A model generated the notes under the pieces. The model did not search any database, had not been told where the DNA came from, and saw only the letters and a program-made list of their open reading frames with translations. Below are positions 1 to 15,330 of a DNA stretch of 64,000 nt, in pieces. Both the position numbers and the translations under genes were made by a program. The stretch spans positions 30,097 through 94,096 of the forward strand of contig JANLIT010000003.1 in assembly GCA_024653945.1 (NCBI GenBank), in the 5' to 3' direction. Position 1 is the stretch's first letter, and each line of letters begins with the position of its first letter. Origin of the DNA: Candidatus Campbellbacteria bacterium. Lineage in GTDB: Bacteria > Patescibacteriota > Minisyncoccia > Phycocordibacterales > EsbW-18.

Positions 1-45
1 GGCGTCTAAAGTATCATTGCAAGATAAAATCCAAGTAAACACACT

Positions 46-267
46 AGCCACGTTTTAAGTCGCGTTTTAATTGACAGTACGCGACATGATTCTGCAGAAT
101 CAACTACGTGGCACGATTTCGCGGTTGTCGCGCCTTAGTCGACAGTTGCGCGACATGATTTTGAAAAACCACGTGCTATACTTAGTCACATAGAGTTCAT
201 TACCGGCTAATTTTAGAATTTCGCCACGTAACAATCGACGGTACGTGGCACGATTTCGCTAAATCGC
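46..267 (+). repeat. Start-codon-abutting repeat element, copy A (long, composite form with internal partial duplication); ends exactly at ATG of 268..804
   Basis: Shares cacgttttaa..gtacgcgacatgattctgcagaatcaac..agttgcgcgacatgattttg with copies at 823-940, 31332-31432 (inverted) and 39400-39495 (inverted). Proximal end cgatttcgctaaatcgcATG keeps the CGATTT/AAATCG hairpin seen before the ATG of 5 other genes. Confidence 0.7.
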
Positions 268-804
268 ATGACACCACTACATAAATCTATTCTTATCATT
301 GTACTTCTTGCCGTAGCAGGAATTGGTCTTGCTGCCTACACGAAGATACAACCACCAATAGACGATGGAGGTATTGCGTGTACTGCAGATGCAAAAATTT
401 GTCCTGATGGTTCAGGTGTTGGTCGCGTAGGCCCTAATTGTGAATTTGCTCCGTGTCCAGAACCTACTCCAAGTCCTGTGCCAATAAGTCAAGGGAGTGG
501 AGTACGAGGTATTGTGTTATCTGGTCCACAGTGTCCCGTCATGCAGGTGGGTGTTCCGTGTCCTGATAAGCCACTTCAGACATCACTTACTATTGATATG
601 CCAAACAGTGAGCGTCTTAGTCCTCTACGAAATTTTAGTTCAGACAAAGAAGGGAAGTTCAGCATTGCTATCTCACCAGGTACGTACACCATTAGTACTG
701 GAGCAGATTCTGGTTTGATGTTTCCATGCCACACAGAACCTTTTGTTGTATCAGCAAACGCCTACACAAACGTGACCGTATCCTGTGACACTGGTATCCG
801 ATAG
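268..804 (+). CDS. Hypothetical secreted/membrane-anchored protein with N-terminal TM helix and Cys-Pro motifs (CPxxxxC)
   Basis: 178-aa ORF with hydrophobic N-terminus SILIIVLLAVAGIGLAAY. Cys-rich motifs ICPDG, CPVMQVGVPCPD. Possible paralog of 62153..62629, which has the same upstream repeat. Confidence 0.5.
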   Translation: MTPLHKSILIIVLLAVAGIGLAAYTKIQPPIDDGGIACTADAKICPDGSGVGRVGPNCEFAPCPEPTPSPVPISQGSGVRGIVLSGPQCPVMQVGVPCPDKPLQTSLTIDMPNSERLSPLRNFSSDKEGKFSIAISPGTYTISTGADSGLMFPCHTEPFVVSANAYTNVTVSCDTGIR

Positions 805-822
805 ACCTTCTTTATGTAAAAT

Positions 823-940
823 TTTGTCGCGCTCTAGGTCACGTAACAAGTCACGTTTTAAGTCGCGTTTTAATTGACGGTACGCGACATGATTCCGCAG
901 AATCACGTACGTGACATGATTCCGCAGAATCACTTGCGTT
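823..940 (+). repeat. Repeat element copy G (5' part only, with internal 27-bp tandem duplication gtacg[c/t]gacatgattccgcagaatcac x2); not followed by a gene
   Basis: Sequence tcacgttttaagtcgcgttttaattgacggtacgcgacatgattccgcagaatcac almost identical to 46-104. Lacks the ..cgattttgtgaaatcgtATG end. Confidence 0.65.
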
Positions 941-1356
941 ATTTTTATTTTCATGTATAGTAGTAGCTGAAGGTCGCGGAGTGTCCTGCGCATGCATGGG
1001 CGTGCTGGTGGAACACAGAGTACGTGTGGAAGAACTCTTGGGGACCCTCCCAGTTGACGAGGAACTTGGACAATCCCTCTCAACTACCCTAGGTTCATCC
1101 TGCCCGAACCTGCTAGGACAGCAGACGGGTGCAATGGCAGGCACTTCGCGATCTTCGACCTTTGTCCCGCTCTTTTCGTTTTCTTTTCGCTCCTCTTCCA
1201 GGAGCACCTTCGGGTCCGTGCGAAATGTACGGGCCTTTTCTTATGGCGAGTTTTTTATTTGATGTGCTATTATTTTTGTACACAACTAAGGTGATGGATC
1301 CCGATAGTGATCAGGTGGCGATATAAAAAATATTTAAACTGCTTTAGACACACAGT

Positions 1357-2679
1357 ATGTCCAATAAAAAAAACAACGTGGTAGATGAAGCCACTATCGG
1401 GATGGAAAAAATTGTATCACTCTGTAAACGACGTGGTTTTATATTTCAGGGTTCTGAAATCTACGGCGGTCTCGCGGGGACATTTGACTACGGACCGTTG
1501 GGTGTGGAACTCAAAAACAACATCAAAGCACTCTGGTGGAAACGATTTATTCACGACCGAAACGATATGTACGGTGTAGATGCTGCTATTTTGATGAATC
1601 CGAAAGTGTGGGTGGCCTCAGGTCACGTGTCTGGATTCTCTGACCCACTTATTGAATGCACAAAGTGTAAACGACGTTTTCGCGCAGACCAGCTTAAAGA
1701 CCCAAAGAAATGCCCTGACTGTGGTGGAACACTTGGTGAAGAAAAACAATTCAATATGATGTTCACAACGCATGCGGGAACACAAGAAGATGAAAACTCA
1801 CTGACGTACTTACGTCCCGAAACTGCAGGAGGAATTTTTGTGAACTTCAAGAATGTGCTGGACTCACTCCATCCGAAGTTGCCGTTTGGTATCGGACAAA
1901 TTGGAAAAGCATTTAGAAACGAGATTGCTCCGCGTGATTTTCTTTTTCGTTCGCGAGAATTTGAACAAATGGAAGTTGAATATTTTGTTGCGCCTGAAAA
2001 CTGGGAAGGTGCGTTTGAGGAATGGAGAAAACAAATGCTCATGTGGACTGCAGAAATTGGTTTGAAAAATGAACATGTGCATGAACATGAGATTGCAAAA
2101 GAAGACCTAGCATTTTATTCAAAGCGAACAATTGATTTTGAATTTGATTATCCGTTTGGTCAGAAGGAACTCTATGGACTTGCATACCGCACCGACTATG
2201 ACCTCGGAGCTCACGCCGAGCACTCAAGCGTTGACCTCACCTATTTTGATGAAGACCTTAAAAAGCGCTTTATTCCACACGTTATTGAGCCGTCTCTTGG
2301 GGTGGATAGGACCGTCCTAGCCGTCTTATGCGACGCCTACAGAGAGGAAACCGTGGAAGGTGAGGTTCGGGTCGTTTTGGGCCTTTCGGCCTCAATTGCG
2401 CCCTACCACATGGCCGTACTACCCCTCATGAAGAAAGATGGTCTCTCTGAGAAAGCGCAAGAAGTATACAAAGAACTCTCTAAAAACCACCGAGTGCTCT
2501 ATGACGAATCTGGTTCAATAGGGAAGCGCTACCGACGACAAGATGAAATCGGAACACTGCTCTGTATTACTATTGACCACCAGACGCTTGAAGACGGCAC
2601 TATGACCGTTCGCGACCGCGACACCATGAAGCAGGAGCGCGTCACACTTGAAACTATTATTGCAATGCGCAGAACATAA
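1357..2679 (+). CDS. glyQS: Glycyl-tRNA synthetase (dimeric glyQS-type class II)
   Basis: 440 aa. N-terminal MEKIVSLCKRRGFIFQGSEIYGGLAGTFDYGPLGVELKNNIKALWW is typical of GlyRS2. Confidence 0.9.
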   Translation: MSNKKNNVVDEATIGMEKIVSLCKRRGFIFQGSEIYGGLAGTFDYGPLGVELKNNIKALWWKRFIHDRNDMYGVDAAILMNPKVWVASGHVSGFSDPLIECTKCKRRFRADQLKDPKKCPDCGGTLGEEKQFNMMFTTHAGTQEDENSLTYLRPETAGGIFVNFKNVLDSLHPKLPFGIGQIGKAFRNEIAPRDFLFRSREFEQMEVEYFVAPENWEGAFEEWRKQMLMWTAEIGLKNEHVHEHEIAKEDLAFYSKRTIDFEFDYPFGQKELYGLAYRTDYDLGAHAEHSSVDLTYFDEDLKKRFIPHVIEPSLGVDRTVLAVLCDAYREETVEGEVRVVLGLSASIAPYHMAVLPLMKKDGLSEKAQEVYKELSKNHRVLYDESGSIGKRYRRQDEIGTLLCITIDHQTLEDGTMTVRDRDTMKQERVTLETIIAMRRT

Positions 2680-2761
2680 GGATGTTTGGTTTTTTGTTGT
2701 AAAATCAAAACATCTGGAGCACAATAGCCCCAGACGAACCCTACATGAGAAGGGAGGGTAT

Positions 2762-3448
2762 ATGGACTCAAGCGCTGCGCGCGCCCAGTGGCAAGCGACG
2801 CGGGAGTCCAATACTCCCCACGTCGTCAGTCTGTTCTACGAACAGCTCACACAGAAGTTGACGGGTGCAGAACATGCACCGAGCTACGATGAAGGTGACC
2901 TCATCCTCTGGCTTCCCAAGGGGGCAACGTTTGGCCTTGAGGTCAAAGGCGGTAGTTCCAACCACGCCTTCCGCATCGAGGACGAACAACTCGCCCGTCA
3001 TCACGTTCTCGCCGATCGGTATCCGTACGATGGTTTCCTGTACTTTCTGTTCGGCTACACATCGTACGAACCACGCAAGGTGGAGAACGGCGACCGACGT
3101 CGGTGCATGGTACGCAACGCAATCCTCAGAGGCTTTGGACGGAGGTTTCTTATCGAGAGAACTCGTCATCTCTGGATTGTGCCCGTGCAACTCATTGAGA
3201 CGCTACACCAGATGGTGGGAATCGGGGCGTCCGCGTTCCCGACTGGGTCCGGCGTACGCATCCAACGACGCATGCTCCAGACCTTTGCGCATGAGACGCA
3301 GGAGGCGCAGAACAGCTGGAGCGTCCGCAACGGCACGGTAGACATCCTACCACCACGCGGACGGACAAGGCGCATCTCCTTTGGGGTTACTATGTTCTGC
3401 TATAACGGCATGCCTGACATTCCCGTCAGGGGTGCTGTATGGAAGTGA
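2762..3448 (+). CDS. PD-(D/E)xK nuclease-like protein (VRR-NUC-like)
   Basis: Motif GDLILWLPKGATFGLEVKGG (D..E-V-K) fits the PD-ExK/VRR-NUC core. SD aagggagggtatATG. The listed 2648 start overlaps glyQS, so the internal ATG at 2762 with SD is preferred. Confidence 0.5.
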   Translation: MDSSAARAQWQATRESNTPHVVSLFYEQLTQKLTGAEHAPSYDEGDLILWLPKGATFGLEVKGGSSNHAFRIEDEQLARHHVLADRYPYDGFLYFLFGYTSYEPRKVENGDRRRCMVRNAILRGFGRRFLIERTRHLWIVPVQLIETLHQMVGIGASAFPTGSGVRIQRRMLQTFAHETQEAQNSWSVRNGTVDILPPRGRTRRISFGVTMFCYNGMPDIPVRGAVWK

Positions 3449-3450
3449 CC

Positions 3451-3480
3451 GCACCCGCTTGTAAGGGGGTGCGTTTTTGT
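3451..3480 (+). terminator. Rho-independent terminator after nuclease gene
   Basis: gcacccgcttgtaagggggtgc followed by gttttt. Confidence 0.6.
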
Positions 3481-3618
3481 ATTTCGGAAATAATTATTTC
3501 ACAATCTGGTTACAATCTAGTCAATAATTCCTTATGCATAAAGGGCGTATACTCTGAAACAGATGCACCTCACAACACGAATACAACCCGTATCGCACCA
3601 CAACCAAGGAGATGGGAG

Positions 3619-6318
3619 ATGCTCAATAACGCTGATGCACTCACTGTACACAGTGAGGACATCCGCGCCCTTCAGAGCTCCTCACCATCATTCTGGGTGT
3701 GGGCACGAGAGGCGTGGATCAAAGGATACCTTGACATCGTCGTCGAGGCCGTTATCACGACTGGCGTAGCCAATGATGTACCGGGGACGCTCGCATATCT
3801 TCAGGCGATTTACCTAGACCAAGTCGGTGGTTCAAAAAAAGTAGCACTCACCGATTTTGCAGGGAAAAATCCCTGGAACAAGCTCCACGCACGTCTGAGT
3901 ATCGCACTGGGCAAGACAAAACCCGCCACTGAACAAGATCTCACGCTTATGCACGGGATTATTGGTCACGCTGCGCTTCCACGACTATTTTCGAGCCGCT
4001 TATTCAGGGAACGAAATCATCGTGTCCTGCGCGAGGAAATGCGCCAAAGCTTGTTGTCGTTCTCTCCGAAGGAAACCGAGATTGGACAAATGACGTTCGG
4101 TTTCGGCGCTGATGTTCCTGCTACCTACGACGCTGTCGGACGCTTGGAAAGCGGTAAATCCGTTCTTGCACGAACAGCTCTGAAAAGAGCGATGACGTTC
4201 TGGAAGGAACACCGCTTGGCAGTCAATGAAGATAACCGCGCACAGTGGCGCGTGCTCGTTCCAAGACTTCGCGTAATCATGGAACCGATTTTCGGTCACT
4301 ATGTCTCGCGACTCGATCTGCATCCAGCCGCTAATCCCGAGATGACGTTCCTGACGCTCATGAGTTGGGCGAGTACGCTGTACTACTGGAAAGAGAATTA
4401 TCGTCGGGTTCTCTTCTCCGAGATAAATACCGTGCTCTCTACGCACGGTTTTCCCGGAGGAAGAGTTGACGCGGTTGAACTCCGCAGAATTGAAGGGGAA
4501 CGACTGACAAGAAAACAGGGTCTCATTCTCGAGTCCCTCAAGGTTCTCCGAAATCGTTCTGCGGGTGAACTCGTTGGTAGGTTCCAACGACAATTTCCCG
4601 GCGTTCTTGAAATTGCAATTCTCGACTGGAAGTTTGCTGTCGGAGACGCACTGGTTCGAGGAGAAATCATCAAACCAAGTGATATCGCGCGCGAACCGTT
4701 TCCAAAGCATCGCTTTCAAGTTGAGCGGTATCTCGCGCTGGCAATTCTTGACCACAGTCTGCAACATGGCATTCGGTATGACGACGAGGTATGGGCCCAG
4801 TACGGACATCGGCTTACCGCCGATGTTGTGTACTTTCTGCCGGGCACACTGCCAATCGTGCATACCGTTGCTCCGGATACTGCACTGCTCAAAGAAGTCT
4901 TCACGACCAGCACTGCCCAGCCTTGGGATAACGCGCGTGACCGCTCGACAATACGTCTGGCCAATAACGCAATCCTAGGACACCTTCTGGGTCTCATTGA
5001 GGGCGGACACAAAGGTAAACAGAACAAGAATGGCACGTCCGCAACTCTACAGGCAGAACTCTTCGACGGACGCACTGGATACGCATCCGTGACGGACATC
5101 ATTGAGAAGCACAAAAACGGGAAGACGGCCGTCGACGTTCACGGCATCATCTTCAAGACGGCGAACGGCAGTTACGAGATGCACTTTGATCGGTTGGTTG
5201 CTGCGGTCGAGCGAGATGATATCGGAACTCGGAATTTCTCCGCCGAATACGGAGGCAAGGTTTCGTGCATGATGCCAGGTCATGATGATTCTGGTCCATC
5301 CATGCACATCTACCTTGACGGAACCCCGCGATTCTTTTGCTTCGGCTGCGAAGCGCGCGGTATCATCGCTGTCAGCTCACTACCCGATCACTTCGAGATA
5401 TCACCCAGCACATTCCGTCGGCACCATATGCCGATGCAGACGGGGGAAAAGGAGACCAGTCTCGATATCTTGATTCCCGAGCGTTACCATCACCTGTTCA
5501 CCACTCTGCAAGAAAGTCTTGCGAGCGCTTTTCACGGAAGCTCTGCGGAACGGTACGTCGCATACAAGCGCAGAATCGACCCTGATCTTGCGTTCACCTA
5601 TGGCGCCGGTTTCGGTACATCGGCGTTACTCAACGACTTACTCGATGCGAAATGCTCGCTTGAGGAGCTTGCGACAAGTGGTATCATCCGCTTCTCTTCA
5701 GAGGTCAAGCCTGACAGCGTCGTCCCACGGCTCTTGAAACGGCACGGCATGCACATTGAGGAACTGACGCGGACCGTGAAGAAAAAGCCCGCATTGCCGT
5801 ACTGTCTTCTCTTTGACCGTGTTACGTTTCCTCTGACGTTTGAAGGTCGTCTCTCGAACTTCTACGCACGTAGCATATCGCCGAGAGGTCTTCCTCATGT
5901 GAAGCTTTCCACGCACCTCACGCAGGGTGGCTTCAACATGGTTGCTCTTGCTGACCCGAACTCCTCTGAAGTAATTATGACCGAAGGAGCCTTTGACGCG
6001 CTCACCCTCATTTCGATGGGGTTTACGAATGTCTTCTCGCTCATCGGCGTATTCAATGTCCCGTTGTTCGGGAGCATCATGCGTTCCGGCAAAGATCTGG
6101 CAACTGCCTTCGACCGCGATTCAAACGTCTACAAAACAGGGCAGACGAAAACCTTGAAGATTGAGAAAAAACTGCGGGAGTGGGGATTTCCGGGACGTGT
6201 TTGTGACTATACCGAAGCCTTCATTCAGAAGCTTCCTCCTGAGGAACGTCCGTCTGAAGGAGATGGTACAAAGTGGGATTTCAACGGATGGTGGTGCGAC
6301 CCTGCCCGCCGCCGTTAA
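3619..6318 (+). CDS. Large (~900 aa) fusion protein: N-terminal ~550-aa domain of unknown function + C-terminal DnaG-type primase core (CHC2 zinc finger + TOPRIM)
   Basis: CMMPGHDDSGPSMHIYLDGTPRFFCFGCEARG matches the DnaG CHC2 zinc-binding motif. VIMTEGAFDALTL (TOPRIM E) and AFDRDSNV (DxD) lie downstream at primase-like spacing. SD aaggagatgggagATG at 3619. The upstream 60 codons of the track ORF span the terminator. Confidence 0.6.
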   Translation: MLNNADALTVHSEDIRALQSSSPSFWVWAREAWIKGYLDIVVEAVITTGVANDVPGTLAYLQAIYLDQVGGSKKVALTDFAGKNPWNKLHARLSIALGKTKPATEQDLTLMHGIIGHAALPRLFSSRLFRERNHRVLREEMRQSLLSFSPKETEIGQMTFGFGADVPATYDAVGRLESGKSVLARTALKRAMTFWKEHRLAVNEDNRAQWRVLVPRLRVIMEPIFGHYVSRLDLHPAANPEMTFLTLMSWASTLYYWKENYRRVLFSEINTVLSTHGFPGGRVDAVELRRIEGERLTRKQGLILESLKVLRNRSAGELVGRFQRQFPGVLEIAILDWKFAVGDALVRGEIIKPSDIAREPFPKHRFQVERYLALAILDHSLQHGIRYDDEVWAQYGHRLTADVVYFLPGTLPIVHTVAPDTALLKEVFTTSTAQPWDNARDRSTIRLANNAILGHLLGLIEGGHKGKQNKNGTSATLQAELFDGRTGYASVTDIIEKHKNGKTAVDVHGIIFKTANGSYEMHFDRLVAAVERDDIGTRNFSAEYGGKVSCMMPGHDDSGPSMHIYLDGTPRFFCFGCEARGIIAVSSLPDHFEISPSTFRRHHMPMQTGEKETSLDILIPERYHHLFTTLQESLASAFHGSSAERYVAYKRRIDPDLAFTYGAGFGTSALLNDLLDAKCSLEELATSGIIRFSSEVKPDSVVPRLLKRHGMHIEELTRTVKKKPALPYCLLFDRVTFPLTFEGRLSNFYARSISPRGLPHVKLSTHLTQGGFNMVALADPNSSEVIMTEGAFDALTLISMGFTNVFSLIGVFNVPLFGSIMRSGKDLATAFDRDSNVYKTGQTKTLKIEKKLREWGFPGRVCDYTEAFIQKLPPEERPSEGDGTKWDFNGWWCDPARRR

Positions 6319-6371
6319 TGCGCACCGCTCAAACGGTCGTAAGAAGAACTGTTCCTTTGAAATTTGTGAAT

Positions 6372-6399
6372 TGCCCGGCATGCGCTGGGCAGTTTTTTT
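6372..6399 (+). terminator. Rho-independent terminator after primase-fusion gene
   Basis: ttgcccggcatgcgctgggcag followed by ttttttt. Confidence 0.55.
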
Positions 6400-6430
6400 A
6401 ACCTGCGTTTTCTGTTAAAGTATAGGGGTA

Positions 6431-7408
6431 ATGAAAAGCACCGGTAAAAAAATCGCACTTTCAGGCGTGAAGCCAACAGGCCGACCACACATCGGAAATT
6501 ATTTTGGTGCAATGAAGCAGTTTGTTGAACTGCAGGAAACACACGAGAATTATATTTTTGTTGCCAACTACCACGCGCTCATTGGTGTACAAAACGCGAA
6601 GACGCTTGCACAAGACACACGCGACGTGATTATTGATTATTTGGCAATCGGCATTGACCCAGATACAACAACACTCTTTTTGCAGTCAGATATTCCAGAA
6701 GTGACAGAACTTGCATGGATTTTTAACACACTCGTCACCGTTCCATACTTGCAACGAGCTCACGCATATAAAGATGCCATTGCAAAAGGAAAGGAGGCAA
6801 CCGTGGGACTTTTTGATTATCCCGTGTTGATGGCGGCGGATATTTTGCTTCCGAATGCGGATGTGGTGCCCGTTGGTGCAGACCAGAAACAGCATGTGGA
6901 GTATGCTCGAGACATTGCACAAAAATTTAATCTTGCGTTTGGCGATACCTTCACGGTTCCTGAACCTCTCATTTTGAAAGATGTTGCGATTATTCTCGGC
7001 ACCGACGGACAAAAAATGAGCAAGAGTTACAACAATACCATTCCATTGTTTGCGACACGTGATGAAATTACGAAGGCGGTGATGAGTATTCCAACCGATT
7101 CTGCTGGAGTTGCTGACCCCAAAGATCCTGAAAAAGATTTTGTATTCCAATTCCACAAACTATTCGCAGGAGATAAACTCGCAGAGATTCGCGCTGGCTA
7201 CGAAAAAGGTGGGCTCGCGTATTCAGAATCAAAGAAAATGCTCATTGAAGAAATAGATGCGTTTTGTGCGCCTCTCCGAGAAAAACGCGCGAAGATTGCC
7301 GGCGATACAAAAATGGTTGACCGTGTCATTGCCGAGGGTAGAGACAAAATCCGTCCACACGCACAGGAATTGATGAAAAAAGTTCGCGAGAAAGTGGGGA
7401 TTGTATGA
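6431..7408 (+). CDS. trpS: Tryptophanyl-tRNA synthetase
   Basis: 325 aa. N-terminal GVKPTGRPHIGNYFG (HIGH-type), KMSKS present, and size typical of TrpRS. Confidence 0.9.
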   Translation: MKSTGKKIALSGVKPTGRPHIGNYFGAMKQFVELQETHENYIFVANYHALIGVQNAKTLAQDTRDVIIDYLAIGIDPDTTTLFLQSDIPEVTELAWIFNTLVTVPYLQRAHAYKDAIAKGKEATVGLFDYPVLMAADILLPNADVVPVGADQKQHVEYARDIAQKFNLAFGDTFTVPEPLILKDVAIILGTDGQKMSKSYNNTIPLFATRDEITKAVMSIPTDSAGVADPKDPEKDFVFQFHKLFAGDKLAEIRAGYEKGGLAYSESKKMLIEEIDAFCAPLREKRAKIAGDTKMVDRVIAEGRDKIRPHAQELMKKVREKVGIV

Positions 7409-7503
7409 AGTGTGCAAAAAAAAGATATTGACATACCGTATTCTTCATTTATAATACAGATAGAAAGGTTCAACCGACACACAATCAATTGAGGAGACTG
7501 GCG

Positions 7504-7728
7504 ATGAACAGCATTCCGAAGGACAAGAGTTACCCAAGTGATTCCGTGCAGTGCGGTGGTTGTCGTGGACGTGGGTGCAAGGAGTGCGAACAGCGGGGAT
7601 GGTTCACGCCAGCATCTCATCCAAGGGGGCAACGTTGTTGGCTGGGAACGTGCGAGAAGCCCCTCCCCCCAAACCACATTGCAGTCTACTGTTCCAACCA
7701 GTGCGCCCAAGACGACGCCACGGACTGA
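7504..7728 (+). CDS. Small Cys-rich (zinc-ribbon-like) protein, GC-rich cassette
   Basis: 74 aa. CGGCRGRGCKECEQRG ... CWLGTC ... CSNQC. SD gaggag 7 nt upstream. Terminator follows. Confidence 0.35.
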   Translation: MNSIPKDKSYPSDSVQCGGCRGRGCKECEQRGWFTPASHPRGQRCWLGTCEKPLPPNHIAVYCSNQCAQDDATD

Positions 7729-7756
7729 TGTTCTCGTCGCTCGCTTTCCGCCCTAG

Positions 7757-7790
7757 GAGCCGCTGCTCTTCGGGCGGCTCTTTTGTTTTT
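7757..7790 (+). terminator. Rho-independent terminator
   Basis: gagccgctgctcttcgggcggctc followed by ttttgttttt. Confidence 0.7.
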
Positions 7791-7865
7791 GGAGTTGCAT
7801 TTTTGGTTACCATTTCGTACACTCATATGTGGACGCGCAATCCAGCGCGACGAAAGGAGCACGGT

Positions 7866-7982
7866 ATGAGTAAGCCCCGGCAGGGTCGCAACCGTCACTG
7901 CAAGCGCTTGAGCCGCATGTTCAACCTCAAGAACGGCTGGCCCATGCATCGGCGGGTGATCCTCCGGCTTCGGGCCGCGTAG
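7866..7982 (+). CDS. Very small basic Arg-rich peptide (38 aa), GC-rich cassette
   Basis: SD aaaggagcacggtATG. MSKPRQGRNRHCKRLSRMFNLKNGWPMHRRVILRLRAA. Own terminator downstream. Confidence 0.3.
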   Translation: MSKPRQGRNRHCKRLSRMFNLKNGWPMHRRVILRLRAA

Positions 7983-8011
7983 ACCCGAGCATCCTTCTCT
8001 CAACCACCACC

Positions 8012-8041
8012 GGGCGCCCCACAAGGGCGCCCTTTATCTTT
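8012..8041 (+). terminator. Rho-independent terminator
   Basis: gggcgccccacaagggcgccc followed by tttatcttt. Confidence 0.6.
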
Positions 8042-8103
8042 AACATACGGCTTGTGCACATTTGGGAAGAGGGGAAAAAACCTATATACTATGTATATGA
8101 ATC

Positions 8104-8219
8104 ACGTTAGAAATAACACAGTAGGCGTGACGCATTATCAGACCGCGGGAGCAAACATTGGTAATGGGGTGTGTTTTATTAAATAGCATTGGAAACGAAC
8201 GTTTCTGATTTCTAACGTG
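8104..8219 (+). promoter_or_regulatory. aspS leader with long-range 12-bp perfect inverted repeat (CACGTTAGAAAT ... ATTTCTAACGTG) whose 3' arm abuts the start codon, plus internal palindrome GAAACGaaCGTTTC
   Basis: Direct reading: 8104-8115 is the reverse complement of 8208-8219, and the ATG is at 8220. Confidence 0.4.
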
Positions 8220-9620
8220 ATGAAAAACCGTATTTATATAAAAGACCTTGAAAAACACATTGACACTAGCGTTACCATCGCTGGGTGGGTATCTGTACGG
8301 CGTGACCACGGAAAGCTTATTTTTATTGATGTTCGCGACGAAACAGGAAAAGTGCAGGTTGTCGTAACACCTAAAAATGCCGAGGCGCTTGCCGTAGCAA
8401 ACAACCTGCGCTCTGAGTGGGTTATTACCATCACTGGACTCATCAAAAAGCGTCCTGATAATTTGATTAATGCAGATGAATTAAACGGCATGCTTGAATG
8501 TGTGGCTGAAGAAATAACGGTGCTTGCCGAAGCAACAACTCCTCCATTTGATATTACTCAAGACACGATGGGTCTTAATGAAGAGGCACGCCTACAGTAC
8601 CGATACGTAGACCTGCGAAGCGCACGAATGCAGAAAAATATTCGTATTCGAAGCGAGTTTGTACAGAAGTGTCGTGAATATCTTTTTTCAAAAGGATTTG
8701 TTGAAATTGAAACTCCACTCCTCACACAATCAACACCGGAAGGTTCTCGCGACTTCCTTGTGCCATCACGACACGCACCTGGACAATTTTATGCACTGCC
8801 ACAATCACCTCAGCAATACAAACAACTCTTGATGACGTCTGGCTTTGAAAAATATTTTCAACTTGCTCGATGTGTGCGTGATGAAGACCTTCGTGCCGAC
8901 CGTGGATATGAACACACACAATTGGACCTTGAAATGGCCTTTGTCACACGTGACGAAGTTATGGACACTATTGAAGGCATGATTATTTTTGTGATGGAAG
9001 GTTTGGGTAAAACAATCAAACAAAAACCATTTCCACGAATGACGTATGCGGAAGCTATAAAAACATACGGCGCCGACAAATTTGATATGCGCACACCAGA
9101 AGATACAGAGAAGGGAATTCTTGCGTACGCATGGGTAACTGATTTTCCATTCTTTGAAAAAACAGATGACGGCAAATGGACGTTCTCTCACAACCCATTT
9201 TCAATGCCAAAGGAAGAGCATTTGGAGTGGCATATGAAAGGCGAGCACGTTGACGAAATAATCACACAGCAGTACGATCTCGTCTGTAACGGATTTGAAA
9301 CAGGAGGAGGAAGTATTCGTGCACATCGTCCAGAAATTCTTGAAGCAACCTACAAAATTATGGGGTATTCGGATACGGAAATAAAAGACAGCGTTGGTCA
9401 TATGCTTGAAGCATTTGCACACGGTGCGCCACCACATGGAGGTATTGGATTGGGAATTGAGCGAGGTGCAATGATTTTGACTGGTGAAGCATACCTGCGT
9501 GAAGTACAGGCATTTCCTATGACAGGAAAAGGAAAGACAGCGGTGATGCACGCACCAGGACCAATTGACCCGATTGTATTGCGAGACCTTGGATTGTCCA
9601 TTTTAAAGAAGAAAGAATAG
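8220..9620 (+). CDS. aspS: Aspartyl-tRNA synthetase (compact bacterial-type, lacking the large insertion domain)
   Basis: QSPQQYKQLLMTSGFEKYFQLARCVRDEDLRADRGYEHTQLDLEMAF closely matches bacterial AspRS motif 2. Has an N-terminal OB-fold. 467 aa. Confidence 0.85.
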   Translation: MKNRIYIKDLEKHIDTSVTIAGWVSVRRDHGKLIFIDVRDETGKVQVVVTPKNAEALAVANNLRSEWVITITGLIKKRPDNLINADELNGMLECVAEEITVLAEATTPPFDITQDTMGLNEEARLQYRYVDLRSARMQKNIRIRSEFVQKCREYLFSKGFVEIETPLLTQSTPEGSRDFLVPSRHAPGQFYALPQSPQQYKQLLMTSGFEKYFQLARCVRDEDLRADRGYEHTQLDLEMAFVTRDEVMDTIEGMIIFVMEGLGKTIKQKPFPRMTYAEAIKTYGADKFDMRTPEDTEKGILAYAWVTDFPFFEKTDDGKWTFSHNPFSMPKEEHLEWHMKGEHVDEIITQQYDLVCNGFETGGGSIRAHRPEILEATYKIMGYSDTEIKDSVGHMLEAFAHGAPPHGGIGLGIERGAMILTGEAYLREVQAFPMTGKGKTAVMHAPGPIDPIVLRDLGLSILKKKE

Positions 9621-9639
9621 CAAAAAGAACACGCACGTC

Positions 9640-10398
9640 ATGAGTGAGTTTCATATTAAAACACCGGTGTTTGAAGGACCACTAGAACTTCTCCTCTCGC
9701 TCATCGAAAAAAGAAAAGTATTTATTAGCGACATATCACTCGCTGATGTTGCTGACGAATATATGGCGTTCGTGAAGCAGTTGGAACACTTTCCCCTCAA
9801 GGAAGCGGCGCAATTTGTACTTATCGCATCCACGCTTGTTCTTATAAAATCAAAATCGTTGTTGCCTGAATTTACGCTCACACAAGAAGAAGAAGCAGAC
9901 ATCAAAGATTTGGAGGAACGACTTCGTGTGTATCAGCGTGTGCAACAACTCTCAAAAGAAATTGGTCTTCGTTTTGGCACACACATACTCTTTCCTCGAG
10001 CGCACACATCGCTCTATCGTGAAGCTGTGTTTGCACCACATGAGTCAATCACTACAAATGCACTCATTGATGCCCTCCACGGCGTGATTGCACGACTCCC
10101 AAAGAAAGAGGTTCTAAAAAAAGTTATTGTTGAAAAAATTATGAGCTTGGAAGATATGATGAAGAATTTGTCGGAGCGTATCGGACACGCACTCAAACTT
10201 CGTTTTAGTGATATCGCAAAAACACACGCACAAAGTGACGCCACGGAAAGGGAAGTGCGCGTGAATACTATCGTCAGTTTTCTTGCCATGCTGGAGTTGG
10301 TCAAGCAAGGAATACTTGCTGTTCGCCAACATCAAACATTTTCCGATATTGAAATGGAAACCGAAACCGTTACCACACCTTCATACGCCCGCCCATGA
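9640..10398 (+). CDS. scpA: Segregation and condensation protein A
   Basis: FEGPLELLLSLIEKRKVFISDISLADVADEY is the kleisin ScpA N-terminal signature. Confidence 0.85.
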   Translation: MSEFHIKTPVFEGPLELLLSLIEKRKVFISDISLADVADEYMAFVKQLEHFPLKEAAQFVLIASTLVLIKSKSLLPEFTLTQEEEADIKDLEERLRVYQRVQQLSKEIGLRFGTHILFPRAHTSLYREAVFAPHESITTNALIDALHGVIARLPKKEVLKKVIVEKIMSLEDMMKNLSERIGHALKLRFSDIAKTHAQSDATEREVRVNTIVSFLAMLELVKQGILAVRQHQTFSDIEMETETVTTPSYARP

Positions 10399-10952
10399 AC
10401 ACACACGCTACACAACTTGAAGCTATTCTTTTTTTCAAAGGCGAACCGCTTTCTTTTTCTGAAATTGCACACCTTTTGAATATTTCTGAAAATAACGTAC
10501 AAACGGCTGGACAGGAACTCAAGGAACACCTCGCACGAGAAAACCGCGGCATTCGTCTCATGGAAAATAATGGCGCATACATGTTGGCCACAGCGCCTGA
10601 AATGGCACCTCGTATTGAGAAACTCATTAAAGATGAGCTGGAACGTGACCTTGGAAAAGCTGGCCTTGAAACACTCTCTATTGTCTTGTACTACGGCCCA
10701 ATTACTCGTGCTCGCATTGACCATATTCGTGGCGTGAATTCATCATTCACCGTCCGACAACTTGCCATACGCGGTCTTATTGAACGCGAGGAAAATCCAA
10801 ACGACCAACGAAGCTACCTCTACAAACCGACATTTGAACTGCTCTCATATCTCGGTGTTACCAATGTGTCCGAGTTACCCGAATATACACACACCAAAGA
10901 AGAACTAGAGAACTTTAGTGCATCGCCAGATAGCGACGAAACACATGAGTAA
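10395..10952 (+). CDS. scpB: Segregation and condensation protein B
   Basis: LEAILFFKGEPLSFSEIAHLL winged-helix ScpB signature. Overlaps the scpA stop. Confidence 0.85.
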   Translation: MNTHATQLEAILFFKGEPLSFSEIAHLLNISENNVQTAGQELKEHLARENRGIRLMENNGAYMLATAPEMAPRIEKLIKDELERDLGKAGLETLSIVLYYGPITRARIDHIRGVNSSFTVRQLAIRGLIEREENPNDQRSYLYKPTFELLSYLGVTNVSELPEYTHTKEELENFSASPDSDETHE

Positions 10953-11883
10953 TGACACTTCAAACTATGATTCGTTTTTGCGCGTAACCCCACTTCTTGT
11001 GGGGGGACTTGTTATTGCTTGTTTTGTCATACTGCTCGGCACCATTGTGCTTCCAAAAAATGTACAGCAAGACACACCCACACCAACGCTTCCCAAAGTG
11101 CCAGTGGCCTCAGTTTTTGATTCAATCAACATTGAGGCTCGTTCAGCATATGTGTATGACGCACAAACGGACTCGGCACTCTTTGAGAAAAACGCGTATG
11201 AAGCACTTCCTCTTGCTTCTATTACAAAACTCTTATCTGTTGTTGTCGCACAATCAGTATTTCCTTCTGGAACTATCATTACTATTTCTCCTGAAGCACT
11301 TTCAGAAGTTGGCGATTCAGATCTTTTTGTGGGGGAGCGTTGGCTATTACGCGACCTCCTGCGGTACACCCTCACCGTTTCTTCAAATGATGGGGCTAGT
11401 GCGGTTGCACACACCTATGATGAACGGGGGGCAACCACGTTCGTTACAAAACTCAACGAATATTCTCAAAGCTTAGGTCTCTCTTCATTTTCATTTACAA
11501 ATGCGACGGGACTTGATGAAAAAGGTACGTGGAAAGCAGCAAATTTTGGCTCCGCACGCGATGTTACATTTTTATTTGCACACGCACTTACCACTATTCC
11601 CGATATTCTTGACGCCACACGAATAGGGCAGGGAAGTATCTCCTCTTTAGACCGCATACACCGTGTTTCAAACACCAACACGATGATTGATAGCATTCCA
11701 AACGCCATTGGTTCAAAAACAGGATTCACAGATGCCGCTGGTGGAAATCTCGTGCTCTCATTTGATGTTGGCATCGGCCACCCGGTGATTATTGTCGTGC
11801 TTGGGTCAAGTAAAGATGGACGTTTTACTGATATGCAAAAGCTTGTTGGTGCCACCAATGCACACTATGCACTACGAGATTAA
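10945..11883 (+). CDS. dacA: D-alanyl-D-alanine carboxypeptidase (PBP5/6-type serine peptidase S11)
   Basis: SITK (SxxK), SSND (SxN) and KTGFT (KTG) motifs in order, with an N-terminal TM. Confidence 0.8.
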   Translation: MSNDTSNYDSFLRVTPLLVGGLVIACFVILLGTIVLPKNVQQDTPTPTLPKVPVASVFDSINIEARSAYVYDAQTDSALFEKNAYEALPLASITKLLSVVVAQSVFPSGTIITISPEALSEVGDSDLFVGERWLLRDLLRYTLTVSSNDGASAVAHTYDERGATTFVTKLNEYSQSLGLSSFSFTNATGLDEKGTWKAANFGSARDVTFLFAHALTTIPDILDATRIGQGSISSLDRIHRVSNTNTMIDSIPNAIGSKTGFTDAAGGNLVLSFDVGIGHPVIIVVLGSSKDGRFTDMQKLVGATNAHYALRD

Positions 11884-11913
11884 AAAATGAGTATTTGATA
11901 CACTATATATTCT

Positions 11914-12966
11914 ATGGATATCATTGACACTATTAAAGTAATTTTTCCAACAACAGTATCATTTACTATTGGTATTCTTATAACGCCAATTGTTACGCAC
12001 TATCTCTACAAATATCAGTGCTGGAAAAAAACAAGCGTGGTAAAAGCGAGTGATGGGGGAGAGGCGCCGATTTCACAAAAACTTCATAATGATGAGGAAC
12101 GAAAAACGCCACGCATGGGGGGAATTGTTATCTGGGCGAGTGTCCTTCTTACAACAGTATTTTTTGTGATTATATCTTCATTTGCTGACGGAATGTTTCA
12201 AACAATATCATTTCTCAGTAGAAACCAGACATGGCTCCCGTTGTTTACCCTCATCGTTGGGGCGCTCGTCGGTCTGTTTGATGACTACCTCAGCATCAAA
12301 GGCTCACTTGATTATGTTGGAGGTGGATTGTCACTCACCAAGCGTGTCGGTCTCGTCACGCTTGTGGGAATAATTGGTGCCTGGTGGTTTTATGAGAAAT
12401 TGGACGTATCAAGCGTCATTGTGCCATTCTTTGGAACATTTGATATCGGCTGGCTCTTCATTCCATTCTTTATTCTTGTCATGCTCGGCACCTACTCTGG
12501 GGGTATTATTGATGGCCTTGATGGCCTTTCTGGTGGCATCTTTGCATCAATATTTTCCGCATACGGCGTTATTGCATTCGCACAAAATCAAATTGACCTC
12601 GCAGCTCTGTGTTTTGTAATTGTGGGAGCCTTGCTCGCTTTTTTATGGTTCAATATTCCACCCGCGCGTTTCTTTATGACAGAAACAGGAATTATGGCGC
12701 TCACTATGACACTTTCGGTTATTGCATTTCTTACACAGCAGGTGCTCATACTGCCTATCATTGCGTTTCTTCTTGTAGTCACCTCTTTATCATCAAGTAT
12801 GCAACTGTTGTCAAAACGGTTCCGAGGTAAAAAAATATTTCTTGTCGCGCCACTCCATCACCACTTTCAAGCCATTGGATGGCCTGCGTCCAAAGTTGTC
12901 ATGCGCTATTGGGTACTCTCTGTCATTTGTGCAACGGTTGGTGTCCTCATAGCACTCTTGGGGTAA
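11914..12966 (+). CDS. mraY: Phospho-N-acetylmuramoyl-pentapeptide transferase
   Basis: Polytopic membrane protein with KTPRMGGIVIW (MraY KxGTPTMGG-like motif), in a dac-mraY-ftsW-murG context. Confidence 0.8.
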   Translation: MDIIDTIKVIFPTTVSFTIGILITPIVTHYLYKYQCWKKTSVVKASDGGEAPISQKLHNDEERKTPRMGGIVIWASVLLTTVFFVIISSFADGMFQTISFLSRNQTWLPLFTLIVGALVGLFDDYLSIKGSLDYVGGGLSLTKRVGLVTLVGIIGAWWFYEKLDVSSVIVPFFGTFDIGWLFIPFFILVMLGTYSGGIIDGLDGLSGGIFASIFSAYGVIAFAQNQIDLAALCFVIVGALLAFLWFNIPPARFFMTETGIMALTMTLSVIAFLTQQVLILPIIAFLLVVTSLSSSMQLLSKRFRGKKIFLVAPLHHHFQAIGWPASKVVMRYWVLSVICATVGVLIALLG

Positions 12967-12992
12967 GAGTACTGAATGCTATACTGAACCAC

Positions 12993-14105
12993 ATGCAGCG
13001 CGGTATTGACAAACCTTTTCTTTTTATCACAAGCATTCTTGTTGTTGCGGGAATGTTTATTTTTATTTCTGCATCAATTGGACTTCTTGCTCGAGCAGAG
13101 AATCTTAATGTTTCTGGACAGATTATTAACCAACTTCTGTCTCTAGGAATTGGTCTTGCCCTTGCACTTCTTGTGTTCCGATTTCCTGTTACTTTTTGGC
13201 ACACCTACTCATTTTATATTTTGTTGGCAGGACTTGCCGCAACACTATTAGTACTCATACCGGGCTTTGGACCCGAACACGGAGGCGCGCGCCGCTGGAT
13301 TGAGATTGGCTCCGTATCACTTCAACCGGCCGAGTTTTTGAAATTTGCGTTCATACTTTATTTTGCCGCCTGGTGTACCGGCGTTCGAAAACGCATACAC
13401 ACATTTACCTATGGCCCGCTTGCACTGCTCCTTCTTCTTGTGCCTGTTGGGTTTGTCCTCTGGTTACAGCCCGACTACGGTTCAATCACCATTATTGGCG
13501 CTACGGGAATGTGCATGTTGATATTTGCGGGAGCACGTTGGAAACATATTATTTCGCTTTCTTTGATTGGTGGTGTGTGTGCACTACTGGTCGTACTTTT
13601 TGTTCCCTACATACAAGACCGAGTGGACACCTTTTTGCATCCGGGAAAAGATCCACTTGCCTCTGGGTATCAAATTAAACAATCACTTATTGCTATTGGC
13701 TCTGGTCAAATAACTGGACGTGGGTTTGGACAAAGCACTCAGAAATTTAATTTTCTTCCTGAACCAATGGGAGATTCGGTATTTGCTGTTTTTGCTGAAG
13801 AGTGGGGATTTGTTGGTGGCATTGTTCTCATCGGTTTATTTATTGCCTTTTTAAACTTCGGTTATCGCATTGCTCTGCGCGCTGAAACGGCCTTTTCTCG
13901 TCTCGTGGTATTAGGTTTCGTTACCGCAATCGTAACGCAATCTTTCATTAATATGGGGTCTATGCTTGGCGTATTTCCACTCACAGGAGACCCTCTTGTT
14001 TTTGTGAGTAAGGGCGGAACATCACTTGTTTTTACCCTCATTGAAATCGGTATTATTTTGGCAATATCAAAACACACAAAAGAGCCGGGTACTGCAAAAA
14101 CCTAG
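12993..14105 (+). CDS. ftsW: SEDS family lipid II flippase/polymerase FtsW/RodA
   Basis: QPAEFLKFAFILYFAAW, PDYGS, GSGQITGRGFGQSTQKFNFLPEPMGDSVFAVFAEEWGFVGG. Start set at the internal ATG (12993) to avoid overlap with mraY. Confidence 0.85.
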   Translation: MQRGIDKPFLFITSILVVAGMFIFISASIGLLARAENLNVSGQIINQLLSLGIGLALALLVFRFPVTFWHTYSFYILLAGLAATLLVLIPGFGPEHGGARRWIEIGSVSLQPAEFLKFAFILYFAAWCTGVRKRIHTFTYGPLALLLLLVPVGFVLWLQPDYGSITIIGATGMCMLIFAGARWKHIISLSLIGGVCALLVVLFVPYIQDRVDTFLHPGKDPLASGYQIKQSLIAIGSGQITGRGFGQSTQKFNFLPEPMGDSVFAVFAEEWGFVGGIVLIGLFIAFLNFGYRIALRAETAFSRLVVLGFVTAIVTQSFINMGSMLGVFPLTGDPLVFVSKGGTSLVFTLIEIGIILAISKHTKEPGTAKT

Positions 14106-14175
14106 TAACGAAAGGGGGTATTTCTGATATACTTATGGAGTACTGTTCGCTGTATACGAGCAGTGTAATACTTTT

Positions 14176-15330
14176 ATGCGCATTATTCTTACAGGCGGGG
14201 GTTCCGGAGGGCACTTTTATCCAATGATTGCTGTTGCTCAGCAAATTCATGAGATTGCAAAGCTCGACCATTTGGTTGAACCTGAGCTTTTGTACATGGC
14301 TGCTGAACCGTACGACATGGACGCACTTCTTGAAAATAATATAGAGTTCAAACACATAACCGCCGGAAAACAAAGACGTTATTTCTCATTTAAAAATGCC
14401 ATTGACGTGTTCAAGATAGGGTGGGGGATGGTAAAGGCAGTTATAAAAGTGTTTCTCTCATTTCCCGATGTTGTGTTCAGTAAGGGCGGATATCCAAGTG
14501 TTCCTGTTGTGTTTGCAACAAAACTATTTCGTATTCCGCTCGTCATTCACGAATCTGATACCGAACCAGGACGTGCAAACGCATGGGCCGCAACATATGC
14601 ACAGCGTATTGCAATTTCATATCCAGAGTCAGTGGACTATTTTGAAAAAATCACCGCACGACGAAAAAGAAAACCGAGAATTGCGCTCACAGGAAACCCT
14701 GTCCGTCACGAACTACAGACCGTTGCAGTATCTGGTGCACATGAATTTTTAAAACTAGAACAAGGCACGCCAACTATTTTAGTTCTTGGCGGTTCTCAAG
14801 GTGCCCAAGCCATCAACGAAACTATTATTGAAGCACTTCCTCGACTCATTGAAAAATATCAGATTCTTCATCAGACAGGATCCGCGCTCTACGACATAAC
14901 TATTGGCAGCGCAGATACTATTCTTGAAGGAAATCCGCTCAAAGAACGCTACCACGCATTTCCATTTCTTAATGTTGTAGCTATGCGCATGTCTGCCGGC
15001 GCCGCTGATCTTATTATTTCCCGCTCTGGCTCGGGTTCTATTTTTGAGATTGCTGCATGGGGTAAACCATCAATTCTCATTCCTATTCCAACAGGCGTCA
15101 GTCATGACCAAGAAAAAAATGCCTTCGCATACGCACGTACCGGCGCAGGACTTGTTGTTGAACAAGCAAACCTGACACCAAACCTCTTGGTATCTGAAAT
15201 TGACCGTCTGATGAGCGCACCTGACGAAATGGCTTCCATGGCACGCAAAGCATCGGAATTCGCACGCCCCGATGCCGCTGAAAAAATTGCCCGCGAAGTG
15301 CTTGATGTCGCTCTTGAACATGAAAAATAA
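14176..15330 (+). CDS. murG: Undecaprenyldiphospho-muramoylpentapeptide beta-N-acetylglucosaminyltransferase
   Basis: MRIILTGGGSGGHFYPMIAVAQQI has the MurG N-terminal G-loop. 384 aa. Confidence 0.9.
   Translation: MRIILTGGGSGGHFYPMIAVAQQIHEIAKLDHLVEPELLYMAAEPYDMDALLENNIEFKHITAGKQRRYFSFKNAIDVFKIGWGMVKAVIKVFLSFPDVVFSKGGYPSVPVVFATKLFRIPLVIHESDTEPGRANAWAATYAQRIAISYPESVDYFEKITARRKRKPRIALTGNPVRHELQTVAVSGAHEFLKLEQGTPTILVLGGSQGAQAINETIIEALPRLIEKYQILHQTGSALYDITIGSADTILEGNPLKERYHAFPFLNVVAMRMSAGAADLIISRSGSGSIFEIAAWGKPSILIPIPTGVSHDQEKNAFAYARTGAGLVVEQANLTPNLLVSEIDRLMSAPDEMASMARKASEFARPDAAEKIAREVLDVALEHEK

Follow-up and report, generated by a model that had tools for sequence, protein, structure and literature searches.

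A predicted fusion of a RecB-like nuclease and a DnaG-like primase in the variable glyS-trpS interval of a Candidatus Campbellbacteria genome

Introduction

The general view is that a bacterium relies on a single DnaG primase, tethered to DnaB; outside replication, primases of the DnaG type have been described chiefly in conjugative elements and in a few defence systems built around reverse transcriptases. RecB-type nucleases, in turn, are defined by the motif pattern GxxD / (D/E)xK / QxxxY. Here we describe a gene, referred to as gene B, whose product probably combines a primase and a nuclease of these two kinds in one polypeptide, together with its upstream neighbour, gene A. Both genes lie on the + strand between glyS and trpS of a Candidatus Campbellbacteria metagenome-assembled genome (MAG), within a stretch of 64,000 nucleotides (GenBank assembly GCA_024653945.1, contig JANLIT010000003.1, positions 30,097 to 94,096 of the forward strand). 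This whole stretch is called the window, and all coordinates refer to it unless a comparison locus (L numbers) is named.

Several described systems resemble gene B in part. With DnaG (Aquifex aeolicus, 2au3; E. coli, 1dd9) it shares the CHC2 zinc finger, the polymerase core and the TOPRIM domain, in the same order and at the same spacing, and the acidic metal ligands (E, DxD, D) and the basic ridge of DnaG are also conserved in the B family. It differs from DnaG in its 540-amino-acid (aa) N-terminal extension with a predicted nuclease, in the absence of a C-terminal DnaB-binding domain, in a third acidic motif of the form D-aromatic-N instead of DPxD, in an insertion of about 35 aa in the core, in a score far below the dnaG equivalog cut-off and in its coexistence with a true DnaG. 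Mobile elements encode DnaG-like primases that are closer in two respects: gene B shares with them Toprim_2 as best Pfam match and the so-called DaN motif. Iyer et al. 2017 (PMC5512222) give this motif, located before strand 4, as the signature of mobile-element DnaG-like primases (Pfam Toprim_2/3/4) and describe their group as always encoded by conjugative elements bearing a type IV secretion system (T4SS). The passages of that study consulted here mention no RecB-like nuclease fused to such a primase, and, unlike the group described there, members of the B family are not flanked by T4SS or other element genes and have no plasmid relatives. Class 3 UG/Abi reverse transcriptase defence systems (UG6/UG24/UG29) also include a non-replicative DnaG-type primase (PMC9226505), but no reverse transcriptase or C-N hydrolase occurs near gene B, which is flanked by glyS, gene A and trpS.

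The nuclease part invites comparison with AdnAB/AddAB/RecBCD, Dna2, Cas4, MGME1 and Exo5, from which it differs in having no attached helicase or motor and no conserved Walker A motif. Cas4, AddB, Dna2 and Exo5 carry a four-cysteine Fe-S cluster that the B nuclease lacks, and relative to the RecB family gene B has an extra invariant pair, G342-D343, and a helical N-terminal region of 240 aa (G113 and H117 invariant, D79 nearly so). Dna2 (nuclease-helicase) and T7 gp4/Twinkle (primase-helicase) resemble gene B in uniting two replication or repair activities directed at single-stranded DNA (ssDNA) in one polypeptide; in both, however, one partner is a helicase, whereas gene B would join a primase to a nuclease, with no motor involved. 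Searches of the literature and of family libraries turned up no description of such a fusion, in keeping with the novelty of architecture suggested by a first-pass annotation of the same DNA.

Gene B comprises three modules

Gene B is composed of a helical N-terminal region, a RecB-type nuclease and a DnaG-like primase, the latter two predicted, with no motor and no DnaB-binding domain. Residues are numbered on the 899-aa protein, and its parts are as follows.

3619..6318, + strand: gene B, 899 aa, predicted RecB-like nuclease fused to a DnaG-like primase
3619..4335, + strand: aa 1-239, alpha-helical N-terminal region (AlphaFold2 secondary structure, predicted local distance difference test (pLDDT), conservation)
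4336..4998, + strand: aa 240-460, predicted RecB/Cas4-family PD-(D/E)xK nuclease domain (AlphaFold2 model and conservation)
4999..5238, + strand: aa 461-540, linker and small beta-beta-alpha element before the zinc finger (AlphaFold2 model, lower confidence)
5251..5373, + strand: aa 545-585, CHC2 zinc finger of DnaG type, C550, H555, C574, C577 (profile and conservation)
5374..5964, + strand: aa 586-782, N-terminal subdomain of the primase RNA-polymerase core (hhalign, hmmsearch to DnaG structures, conservation)
5965..6315, + strand: aa 783-899, TOPRIM domain (Toprim_2 match, hhalign, profile, conservation)

The open reading frame (ORF) called mechanically begins at 3439 and would encode 959 aa; the real start is the ATG at 3619, 7 nt past AAGGAG. 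The resulting 899-aa protein is 100% identical to NCBI MCR4274789.1 ('toprim domain-containing protein'), which is encoded on the same 228-kb contig as gene A, and the alignments of homologues also begin at residue 1 of this version.

The primase module

A canonical CHC2 zinc finger followed by TOPRIM motifs at DnaG-like spacing had been reported for this gene from its sequence, and the strings on which that report was based, CMMPGHDDSGPSMHIYLDGTPRFFCFGCEARG, TEGAFD and DRD, are all present. With the single sequence as query, the PHROGs family phrog_47 'DNA primase' was matched from the finger through the TOPRIM domain (E 2.9e-16), and the PADLOC profile 'RTasDnaG-like' was matched over aa 702-913 in the 959-aa numbering (E 8.9e-14), that is, over the generic primase core only. 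The best Pfam match was Toprim_2 (E 2.4e-4), followed by a weak one to Zn_ribbon_DnaG (E 0.041), a family that is recovered at E 2.8e-6 in the homologue from locus L011. A family profile built from 88 homologous sequences, which also underlie the conservation percentages given below for gene B, retrieved Aquifex DnaG 2au3 at E 9e-25, the zinc-finger structure 1d0q at E 2e-9 and a further five DnaG structures with E values of 1e-10 to 1e-13. Alignment by hhalign to a canonical DnaG from the Candidate Phyla Radiation (CPR) gave a probability of 99.4% (E 7e-22) over DnaG residues 29-334, spanning finger, core and TOPRIM. Matches of this strength lie well beyond chance expectation.

Conservation follows the same outline. 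In the zinc finger, C550, C574 and C577 are conserved in 100% of the sequences and H555 in 86%, while the core subdomain holds the basic ridge Y749-G-R751 and H760-R-K762-L together with the family-specific insertion. The acidic residues of the TOPRIM domain, whose absence from an alignment would have spoken against the original assignment, are in place: E789 (98%), D793 (81%), D832 (85%, with N in a further 12%), D834 (95%) and D887 (97%). Position 888 is F, Y or W and N889 is conserved in 91%, so that D887-F-N889 fits the DaN signature; only about 30% of members have an acidic residue at the fourth position of this motif. The canonical DnaG of L011 has KDPGD in the corresponding place. With both the CHC2 finger and a core bearing the TOPRIM acidic residues, the C-terminal part of gene B is predicted to be a DnaG-like primase.

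It is not a DnaG equivalog: the score against TIGR01391 (E 3.7e-7) is 29.3 bits, with a cut-off of 283.6. The usual C-terminal helicase-binding domain is absent, as had been noted earlier, since DnaB_bind gives no match and the protein ends about 65 aa past the DxD motif. Nor was a helicase domain found in gene B, which does not conform to a T7 gp4-like SF4 primase-helicase.

The nuclease module

The roughly 550 residues preceding the zinc finger had been described as devoid of a Walker A motif and of any other recognisable feature. The first part of this description stands. A Walker-A-like string, GRLESGKS at aa 174-181, is a chance match, being non-conserved and situated in a disordered loop of low pLDDT, and no conserved Walker A occurs in gene B. 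The second part does not, as the region contains a predicted nuclease domain of the RecB/Cas4 family.

AlphaFold2 gave an unusable model of the N-terminal domain when run with a single sequence or with four sequences (pLDDT 42), and an alignment of 112 sequences was used instead, yielding a pLDDT of 86 and a predicted template modelling score of 0.84. In this model aa 1-239 are helical and aa 240-460 form an alpha/beta core of restriction-endonuclease type, which we counted as closest to RecB-family structures. The key residues of the core are E268, G-R282-x-D284, (D/E)336-W-K338, G342-D343, H364, Q367-x3-Y371 and Y405. D284, K338 and Y371 are conserved in 100% of the sequences, E268 and the acidic residue at 336 in 99% and Q367 in 98%; G342 and D343 are invariant. 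In the model E268 falls on strand 1, D284 on strand 2, residues 336 and K338 on strand 3, and Q367-Y371 on the next helix. The series D ... (D/E)xK ... QxxxY is thus complete, and the family consensus GGRIDAL...DWKFAVGD...QxxRY agrees with the classic motif pattern of RecB/AddAB.

No cysteine occurs in aa 1-540 of gene B and no cysteine column is conserved across the N-domain family, so an Fe-S cluster like that of Cas4, AddB, Dna2 and Exo5 is absent and the domain resembles the cluster-free RecB, AddA, RecE and MGME1. Foldseek searches of the model against PDB and BFVD returned no significant match and sequence profiles gave none either, suggesting a very divergent member of the RecB-type fold. 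On the strength of model and motifs, we assign aa 240-460 as a predicted RecB/AddAB/Cas4-type PD-(D/E)xK nuclease without Fe-S cluster. In the helical region before it D79 is 98% conserved and G113 and H117 are invariant, with a disordered, variable loop at aa 151-177; this region may form a lid or arch over the nuclease or give it a metal ligand. To judge from the alignments, the catalytic centres of both predicted modules are under strong purifying selection, being conserved over about 100 diverged full-length members.

Distribution and neighbours of the B family

The N-domain profile was searched against 1.84 billion representative proteins. The family recovered consists of 204 clusters at 50% identity, 142 of them at E <= 1e-30. 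Among the best 151 clusters, 106 have the full nuclease-primase architecture (820-980 aa) and 27 are complete proteins made of the N-domain only (440-560 aa). Members that can be placed come from Paceibacterota/Minisyncoccia MAGs, with a few records under other automatic labels, and database names are limited to 'toprim domain-containing protein' and 'hypothetical protein'. No homologue of gene B exceeds 36% identity even though genomes of relatives are in the database, indicating that gene B is not a vertically conserved gene of Campbellbacteria.

The N-domain-only members at hand (L015 220-1746, L024 1053-2561 and L025 6001-7491) are about 500 aa long and keep all nuclease motifs, while neither a conserved partner nor a split primase gene was found near them. 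In L015 a Cas4-like gene (TIGR00372, E 1.6e-3; 1748-2521, - strand) abuts the nuclease-only gene convergently, and in L024 a Y1 transposase gene lies upstream of it. The predicted nuclease module can therefore stand alone.

The immediate neighbours of B homologues are housekeeping genes (thyX, groEL, lemA, msrA, glmS, ftsH, serS, ftsX, prfA and a response regulator gene), with the occasional Mu Gam, GIY-YIG, Y1 transposase or Cas4-like gene. In L002 a Mu Gam-like gene (DNA-end-binding; 9156-9761) is found directly upstream of the B homologue, and a run of small ORFs without Pfam matches, possibly a prophage remnant or a repair context, downstream of it.

These data bear on the proposal, made in the first-pass annotation, of a degenerate phage or satellite replication module, or more broadly of a replication module left over from a phage, satellite, plasmid or conjugative element, with an initiator nuclease and a primase. 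Such an origin would account for a phage primase family, phrog_47, being the best match in the family libraries, for the DaN motif ascribed to mobile-element primases and for the atypical composition of the locus. No relatives of gene B were found, however, among 50,697 phage records (INPHARED) and 72,556 plasmids (PLSDB) or by a pattern scan of IMG/VR; the model has no significant fold match in BFVD; and no helicase, integrase, structural or T4SS gene lies beside any homologue (T4SS-type genes being sought within 6-10 kb). Moreover, both active sites are conserved across about 200 clusters, which argues that gene B is not degenerate. The data contradict this origin, which we consider very unlikely.

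Coexistence with a canonical DnaG

In L011 a 921-aa family member and a canonical 569-aa DnaG, located 3.7 kb downstream, are encoded on one contig. The latter (8302-10011; 12409-14115 in L026, from the same organism) matches Zn_ribbon_DnaG (1e-31), DNAG_N (1e-32), Toprim and DnaB_bind, and is followed in L011 by a 401-aa ORF. The presence of a canonical DnaG beside a family member indicates that gene B is an accessory enzyme coexisting with canonical DnaG and not the replicative primase.

That gene B might nevertheless be the replicative primase of its organism, a lineage-specific DnaG with an N-terminal extension, is suggested by its being the sole DnaG-like gene in the window and by its chromosomal position among housekeeping genes. 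Besides the L011/L026 case and the TIGR01391 score, this is contradicted by the missing DnaB-binding domain, given that the DnaB of the window (24756-26180; DnaB_C, E 1e-101) has a normal N-terminal domain (4e-34), by the 27 of 151 best family representatives that have no primase part and by the lack of an orthologue at the same slot in close relatives. We regard a replicative role as extremely improbable.

The glyS-trpS interval of the window

The remaining features of the interval are listed below.

1357-2679: glyS, upstream flank of the A-B region
2762..3448, + strand: gene A, 228 aa, NCBI hypothetical protein NUW02_01935, small basic protein with a PD-(D/E)xK-like motif (E27, D46, E60-V-K62)
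3450..3483, + strand: terminator-like hairpin (3450-3473) and U-run directly 3' of gene A, fold -17.2 kcal/mol, z -2.2
3484..3618, + strand: AT-rich spacer 5' of gene B, with the Shine-Dalgarno sequence AAGGAG at 3606-3611
6368..6399, + strand: terminator hairpin (6368-6395) and U7 3' of gene B, upstream of trpS, -19.1 kcal/mol, z -3.8, 0/200 shuffles as stable
6431-7408: trpS, downstream flank of the A-B region

As stated in the first-pass annotation, both genes have Shine-Dalgarno sequences (GGGAGGG upstream of the start of gene A, AAGGAG for gene B) and each is followed by a hairpin with a U-run. The two genes are separated by 170 nt, and the spacer 3484..3618 contains candidate -10 elements (TATGCAT, TATACT) recognised by eye only; no site was called there in a consensus promoter scan. 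An Rfam scan of positions 1-12000 gave no match. Genes A and B are two independent transcription units in a variable glyS-trpS slot of a Paceibacterota (CPR) chromosome.

The composition of the A-B region is atypical for the host genome. GC content is 0.50-0.58 over 2750-6250 and 0.42-0.46 in the flanks, and GC content at third codon positions (GC3) is 0.67 in gene A and 0.57 in gene B. The 31 long ORFs of the window, among which gene B and its antisense shadow ORF are themselves counted, average 0.379 +/- 0.079. Two observations weaken this elevation as proof of recent transfer. In 8 of the 9 loci measured the B-family gene exceeds its flanks by 2-7 GC points, and dnaB, in the same window, has a GC3 of 0.54, about two standard deviations above the window mean, so that not all GC3 outliers of the window are foreign. 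An apparent further GC3 outlier on the minus strand was discarded; it is a 287-aa antisense ORF inside gene B (4000-4863, - strand), a shadow of a GC-rich coding region and not a gene.

The locus had been described as a foreign island. Atypical composition agrees with this, but a single island is not supported: gene B is absent from the slot in relatives whereas gene A is resident after glyS there, and no tRNA, integrase or flanking direct repeats were found around A-B. The sole direct-repeat candidate, a 19-nt match of 79% lying inside the coding regions of glyS and trpS, was judged to be due to chance.

A second GC-rich insert (7410-8050, GC 0.586) occupies the gap between trpS and aspS. It contains a Cys-rich ORF of 74-79 aa (7489/7504-7728, GC3 0.64) and an Arg-rich ORF of 38 aa (7865-7981), preceded by a near-consensus promoter, TTGACA-17-TATAAT, at about 7427-7455. 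These ORFs have no homologues in any of the loci fetched and no convincing Pfam match.

Gene A and gene X at the 3' flank of glyS

Gene A had been assigned a PD-(D/E)xK/VRR-NUC-like core. The motif itself is confirmed, as E27, GD(46) and E(60)VK(62) are invariant in all 4 known homologues and have the spacing typical of PD-(D/E)xK enzymes; the fold finds no profile support, with no match to gene A in Pfam, PHROGs, PADLOC, NCBIfam, PDB (single sequence and profile) or phage tblastn, and none in a scan of JGI metagenomes. Gene A is accordingly treated here as a putative nuclease, a hypothesis at the level of motifs. The nuclease that matters is the one inside gene B itself, given the predicted nuclease domain within its N-terminal region.

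Only three other lineages with gene A were found in 5.8 billion proteins, and in all of them it lies directly 3' of glyS. In two lineages, represented by L004/L005/L006 and by L023, gene A is followed by gene X and then by trpS (glyS - A - X - trpS). Of the third lineage, the contig of L007 stops after gene A and that of L008 stops 18 codons into an X-like ORF (922-975). Gene X (L004 10806-11861; L023 2210-3238) encodes 342-351 aa with a C-x2-C-x5-C cluster near the C-terminus, weakly matching the EndoIII Fe-S motif (E 0.25), and may be a divergent DNA glycosylase-like protein. It has no PDB or PADLOC match, is unrelated to gene B and is absent from the 64-kb window. The hairpin right after gene A occurs at the same position in the window and in L004, and similarity stops there, indicating that gene B, with its own promoter region and terminator, takes the place of gene X.

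Genes A of L004 (10001-10690) and L007 (5603-6292) are 84% identical, whereas their glycyl-tRNA synthetases (GlyRS) are 75% identical; gene A of the window is 52% identical to both and its GlyRS 78% to both. In two low-GC genomes the GC3 of gene A is high (0.67 vs 0.38 in the window; 0.58 vs 0.30-0.37 in L007), and in high-GC genomes the composition of genes A and X matches that of the host. The incongruence between A and glyS identities, together with the high GC3 of gene A in low-GC hosts, points to lateral exchange of gene A. Gene A is thus a fast-evolving gene, unrelated to gene B, that passes from lineage to lineage and is regularly found at the 3' flank of glyS, and the space after glyS is a site of gene turnover in Campbellbacteria. 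Gene A could be a homing-type cassette or mark a recombination hotspot.

The possibility that genes A and B form a two-gene system, either a defence-type pair of a nuclease and a TOPRIM protein or a single foreign island, rests on their being adjacent, on the same strand, both GC3-rich and enclosed by two housekeeping genes. The pairing is not reproduced elsewhere. Gene A is absent from all of the approximately 20 other B-family loci, none of which is at glyS or trpS; hhalign showed no relation between A and the B family; and the readable gene after A in other lineages is X or an X-like start, not B. The terminator hairpin and the 170-nt spacer between the genes, as well as the missing repeats, tRNA and integrase, are also at odds with a unit. 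A pair of this kind, as the first-pass annotation had proposed, is contradicted by the comparative data and very unlikely.

In L004 a low-GC island (12900-17700, GC 0.35-0.45 in a 0.54 genome) begins right after trpS. It codes for an MzaB-like HATPase protein (PADLOC E 4.5e-7), a cytosine methylase and a MutH-like endonuclease, and has the look of a restriction/defence cluster.

Proposed role of gene B

We favour, with some confidence, the view that gene B encodes a motor-less fusion of a RecB-like nuclease and a DnaG-like primase, and that it likely serves as an accessory enzyme for end-processing and re-priming in repair, recombination or the conversion of incoming ssDNA. As both modules are predicted to be directed at ssDNA, the protein would act on ssDNA ends, flaps and gaps independently of the replisome and without a replicative helicase. 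The nuclease would trim or resect an ssDNA end or flap by Mg2+-dependent cleavage via D284, D/E336 and K338, with Q367/Y371 and possibly H117 taking part. The tethered zinc finger and TOPRIM core would then lay a short RNA primer on the exposed strand, from which a DNA polymerase could fill in.

Several points weigh against this reading. Both activities are deduced from conserved residues, and no Pfam, NCBIfam or PDB sequence profile picks up the nuclease domain, those of the PDDEXK and Cas4 families (PF12705 PDDEXK_1, TIGR00372) included. Co-occurrence with a canonical DnaG is seen in one organism only. An all-vs-all BLAST of the ORFs of 11 loci found no conserved neighbour, leaving the family with no pathway anchor. 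GC3 alone, given the value of dnaB and the GC excess of the family as a whole, is weak evidence for transfer. Finally, patchy spread, identities of at most 36%, atypical GC3 and a variable slot would be expected of a conflict or defence gene no less than of a repair gene.

Gene B may, in fact, be a stand-alone anti-phage or anti-plasmid gene, whose primase module would recognise or prime invading ssDNA or replication intermediates for the nuclease to destroy; in a variant of this idea, aberrant priming would poison the replication of the invader. The molecular anatomy would be that proposed above, and only the role would differ. A solitary gene that has its own promoter and terminator and sits in a slot filled differently in close relatives would suit defence, as would its atypical GC3, its fast evolution without a close orthologue in relatives and its TOPRIM, which is of the DaN type seen in mobile elements. 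Class 3 systems of defence-associated reverse transcriptases do include DnaG-type primases (PMC9226505), and the RTasDnaG-like match of PADLOC relates to these systems; the L004 lineage has its restriction/defence-like island right after trpS; and some homologues adjoin Mu Gam, GIY-YIG, Cas4-like or Y1 transposase genes. Conversely, PADLOC returned no system, the match being to the generic primase part with no reverse transcriptase nearby, most neighbours of the homologues are ordinary housekeeping genes and not defence islands, and a single-gene nuclease-primase defence is without precedent. We see stand-alone defence as a possibility of lesser probability. A role in repair, recombination or incoming-DNA handling is ranked slightly above it, and the evidence separates the two poorly.

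A broader interpretation, put forward tentatively, takes in the whole locus. The B family could be a new class of motor-less nuclease-primases confined to ultra-small CPR bacteria, for the processing and priming of ssDNA or for single-gene defence against mobile elements, with gene A marking a hotspot at glyS. In the first case foreign or broken ssDNA may be processed and primed, for example to make host- or environment-derived DNA duplex, or synthesis may be restarted at resected ends in genomes lacking RecBCD/AddAB. The hotspot, which would be fixed 3' of glyS and, in loci readable on the far side, bounded there by trpS, may consist of a fast-evolving, laterally exchanged putative nuclease, gene A, with interchangeable DNA-processing cargo, X or B, and by analogy may resemble a free-standing homing endonuclease cassette.

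What is new in gene B is the fusion of two well-known catalytic modules, in a sizeable uncharacterised CPR family. About 200 clusters, placed so far only in Paceibacterota/Minisyncoccia MAGs, carry a predicted primase and RecB-type nuclease in one motor-less polypeptide. If both activities are real, the family would provide a compact device for end-processing and priming in organisms with minimal repair repertoires. This would be relevant to break repair, the handling of acquired DNA or phage resistance in CPR bacteria, and the protein might also be a useful enzyme.

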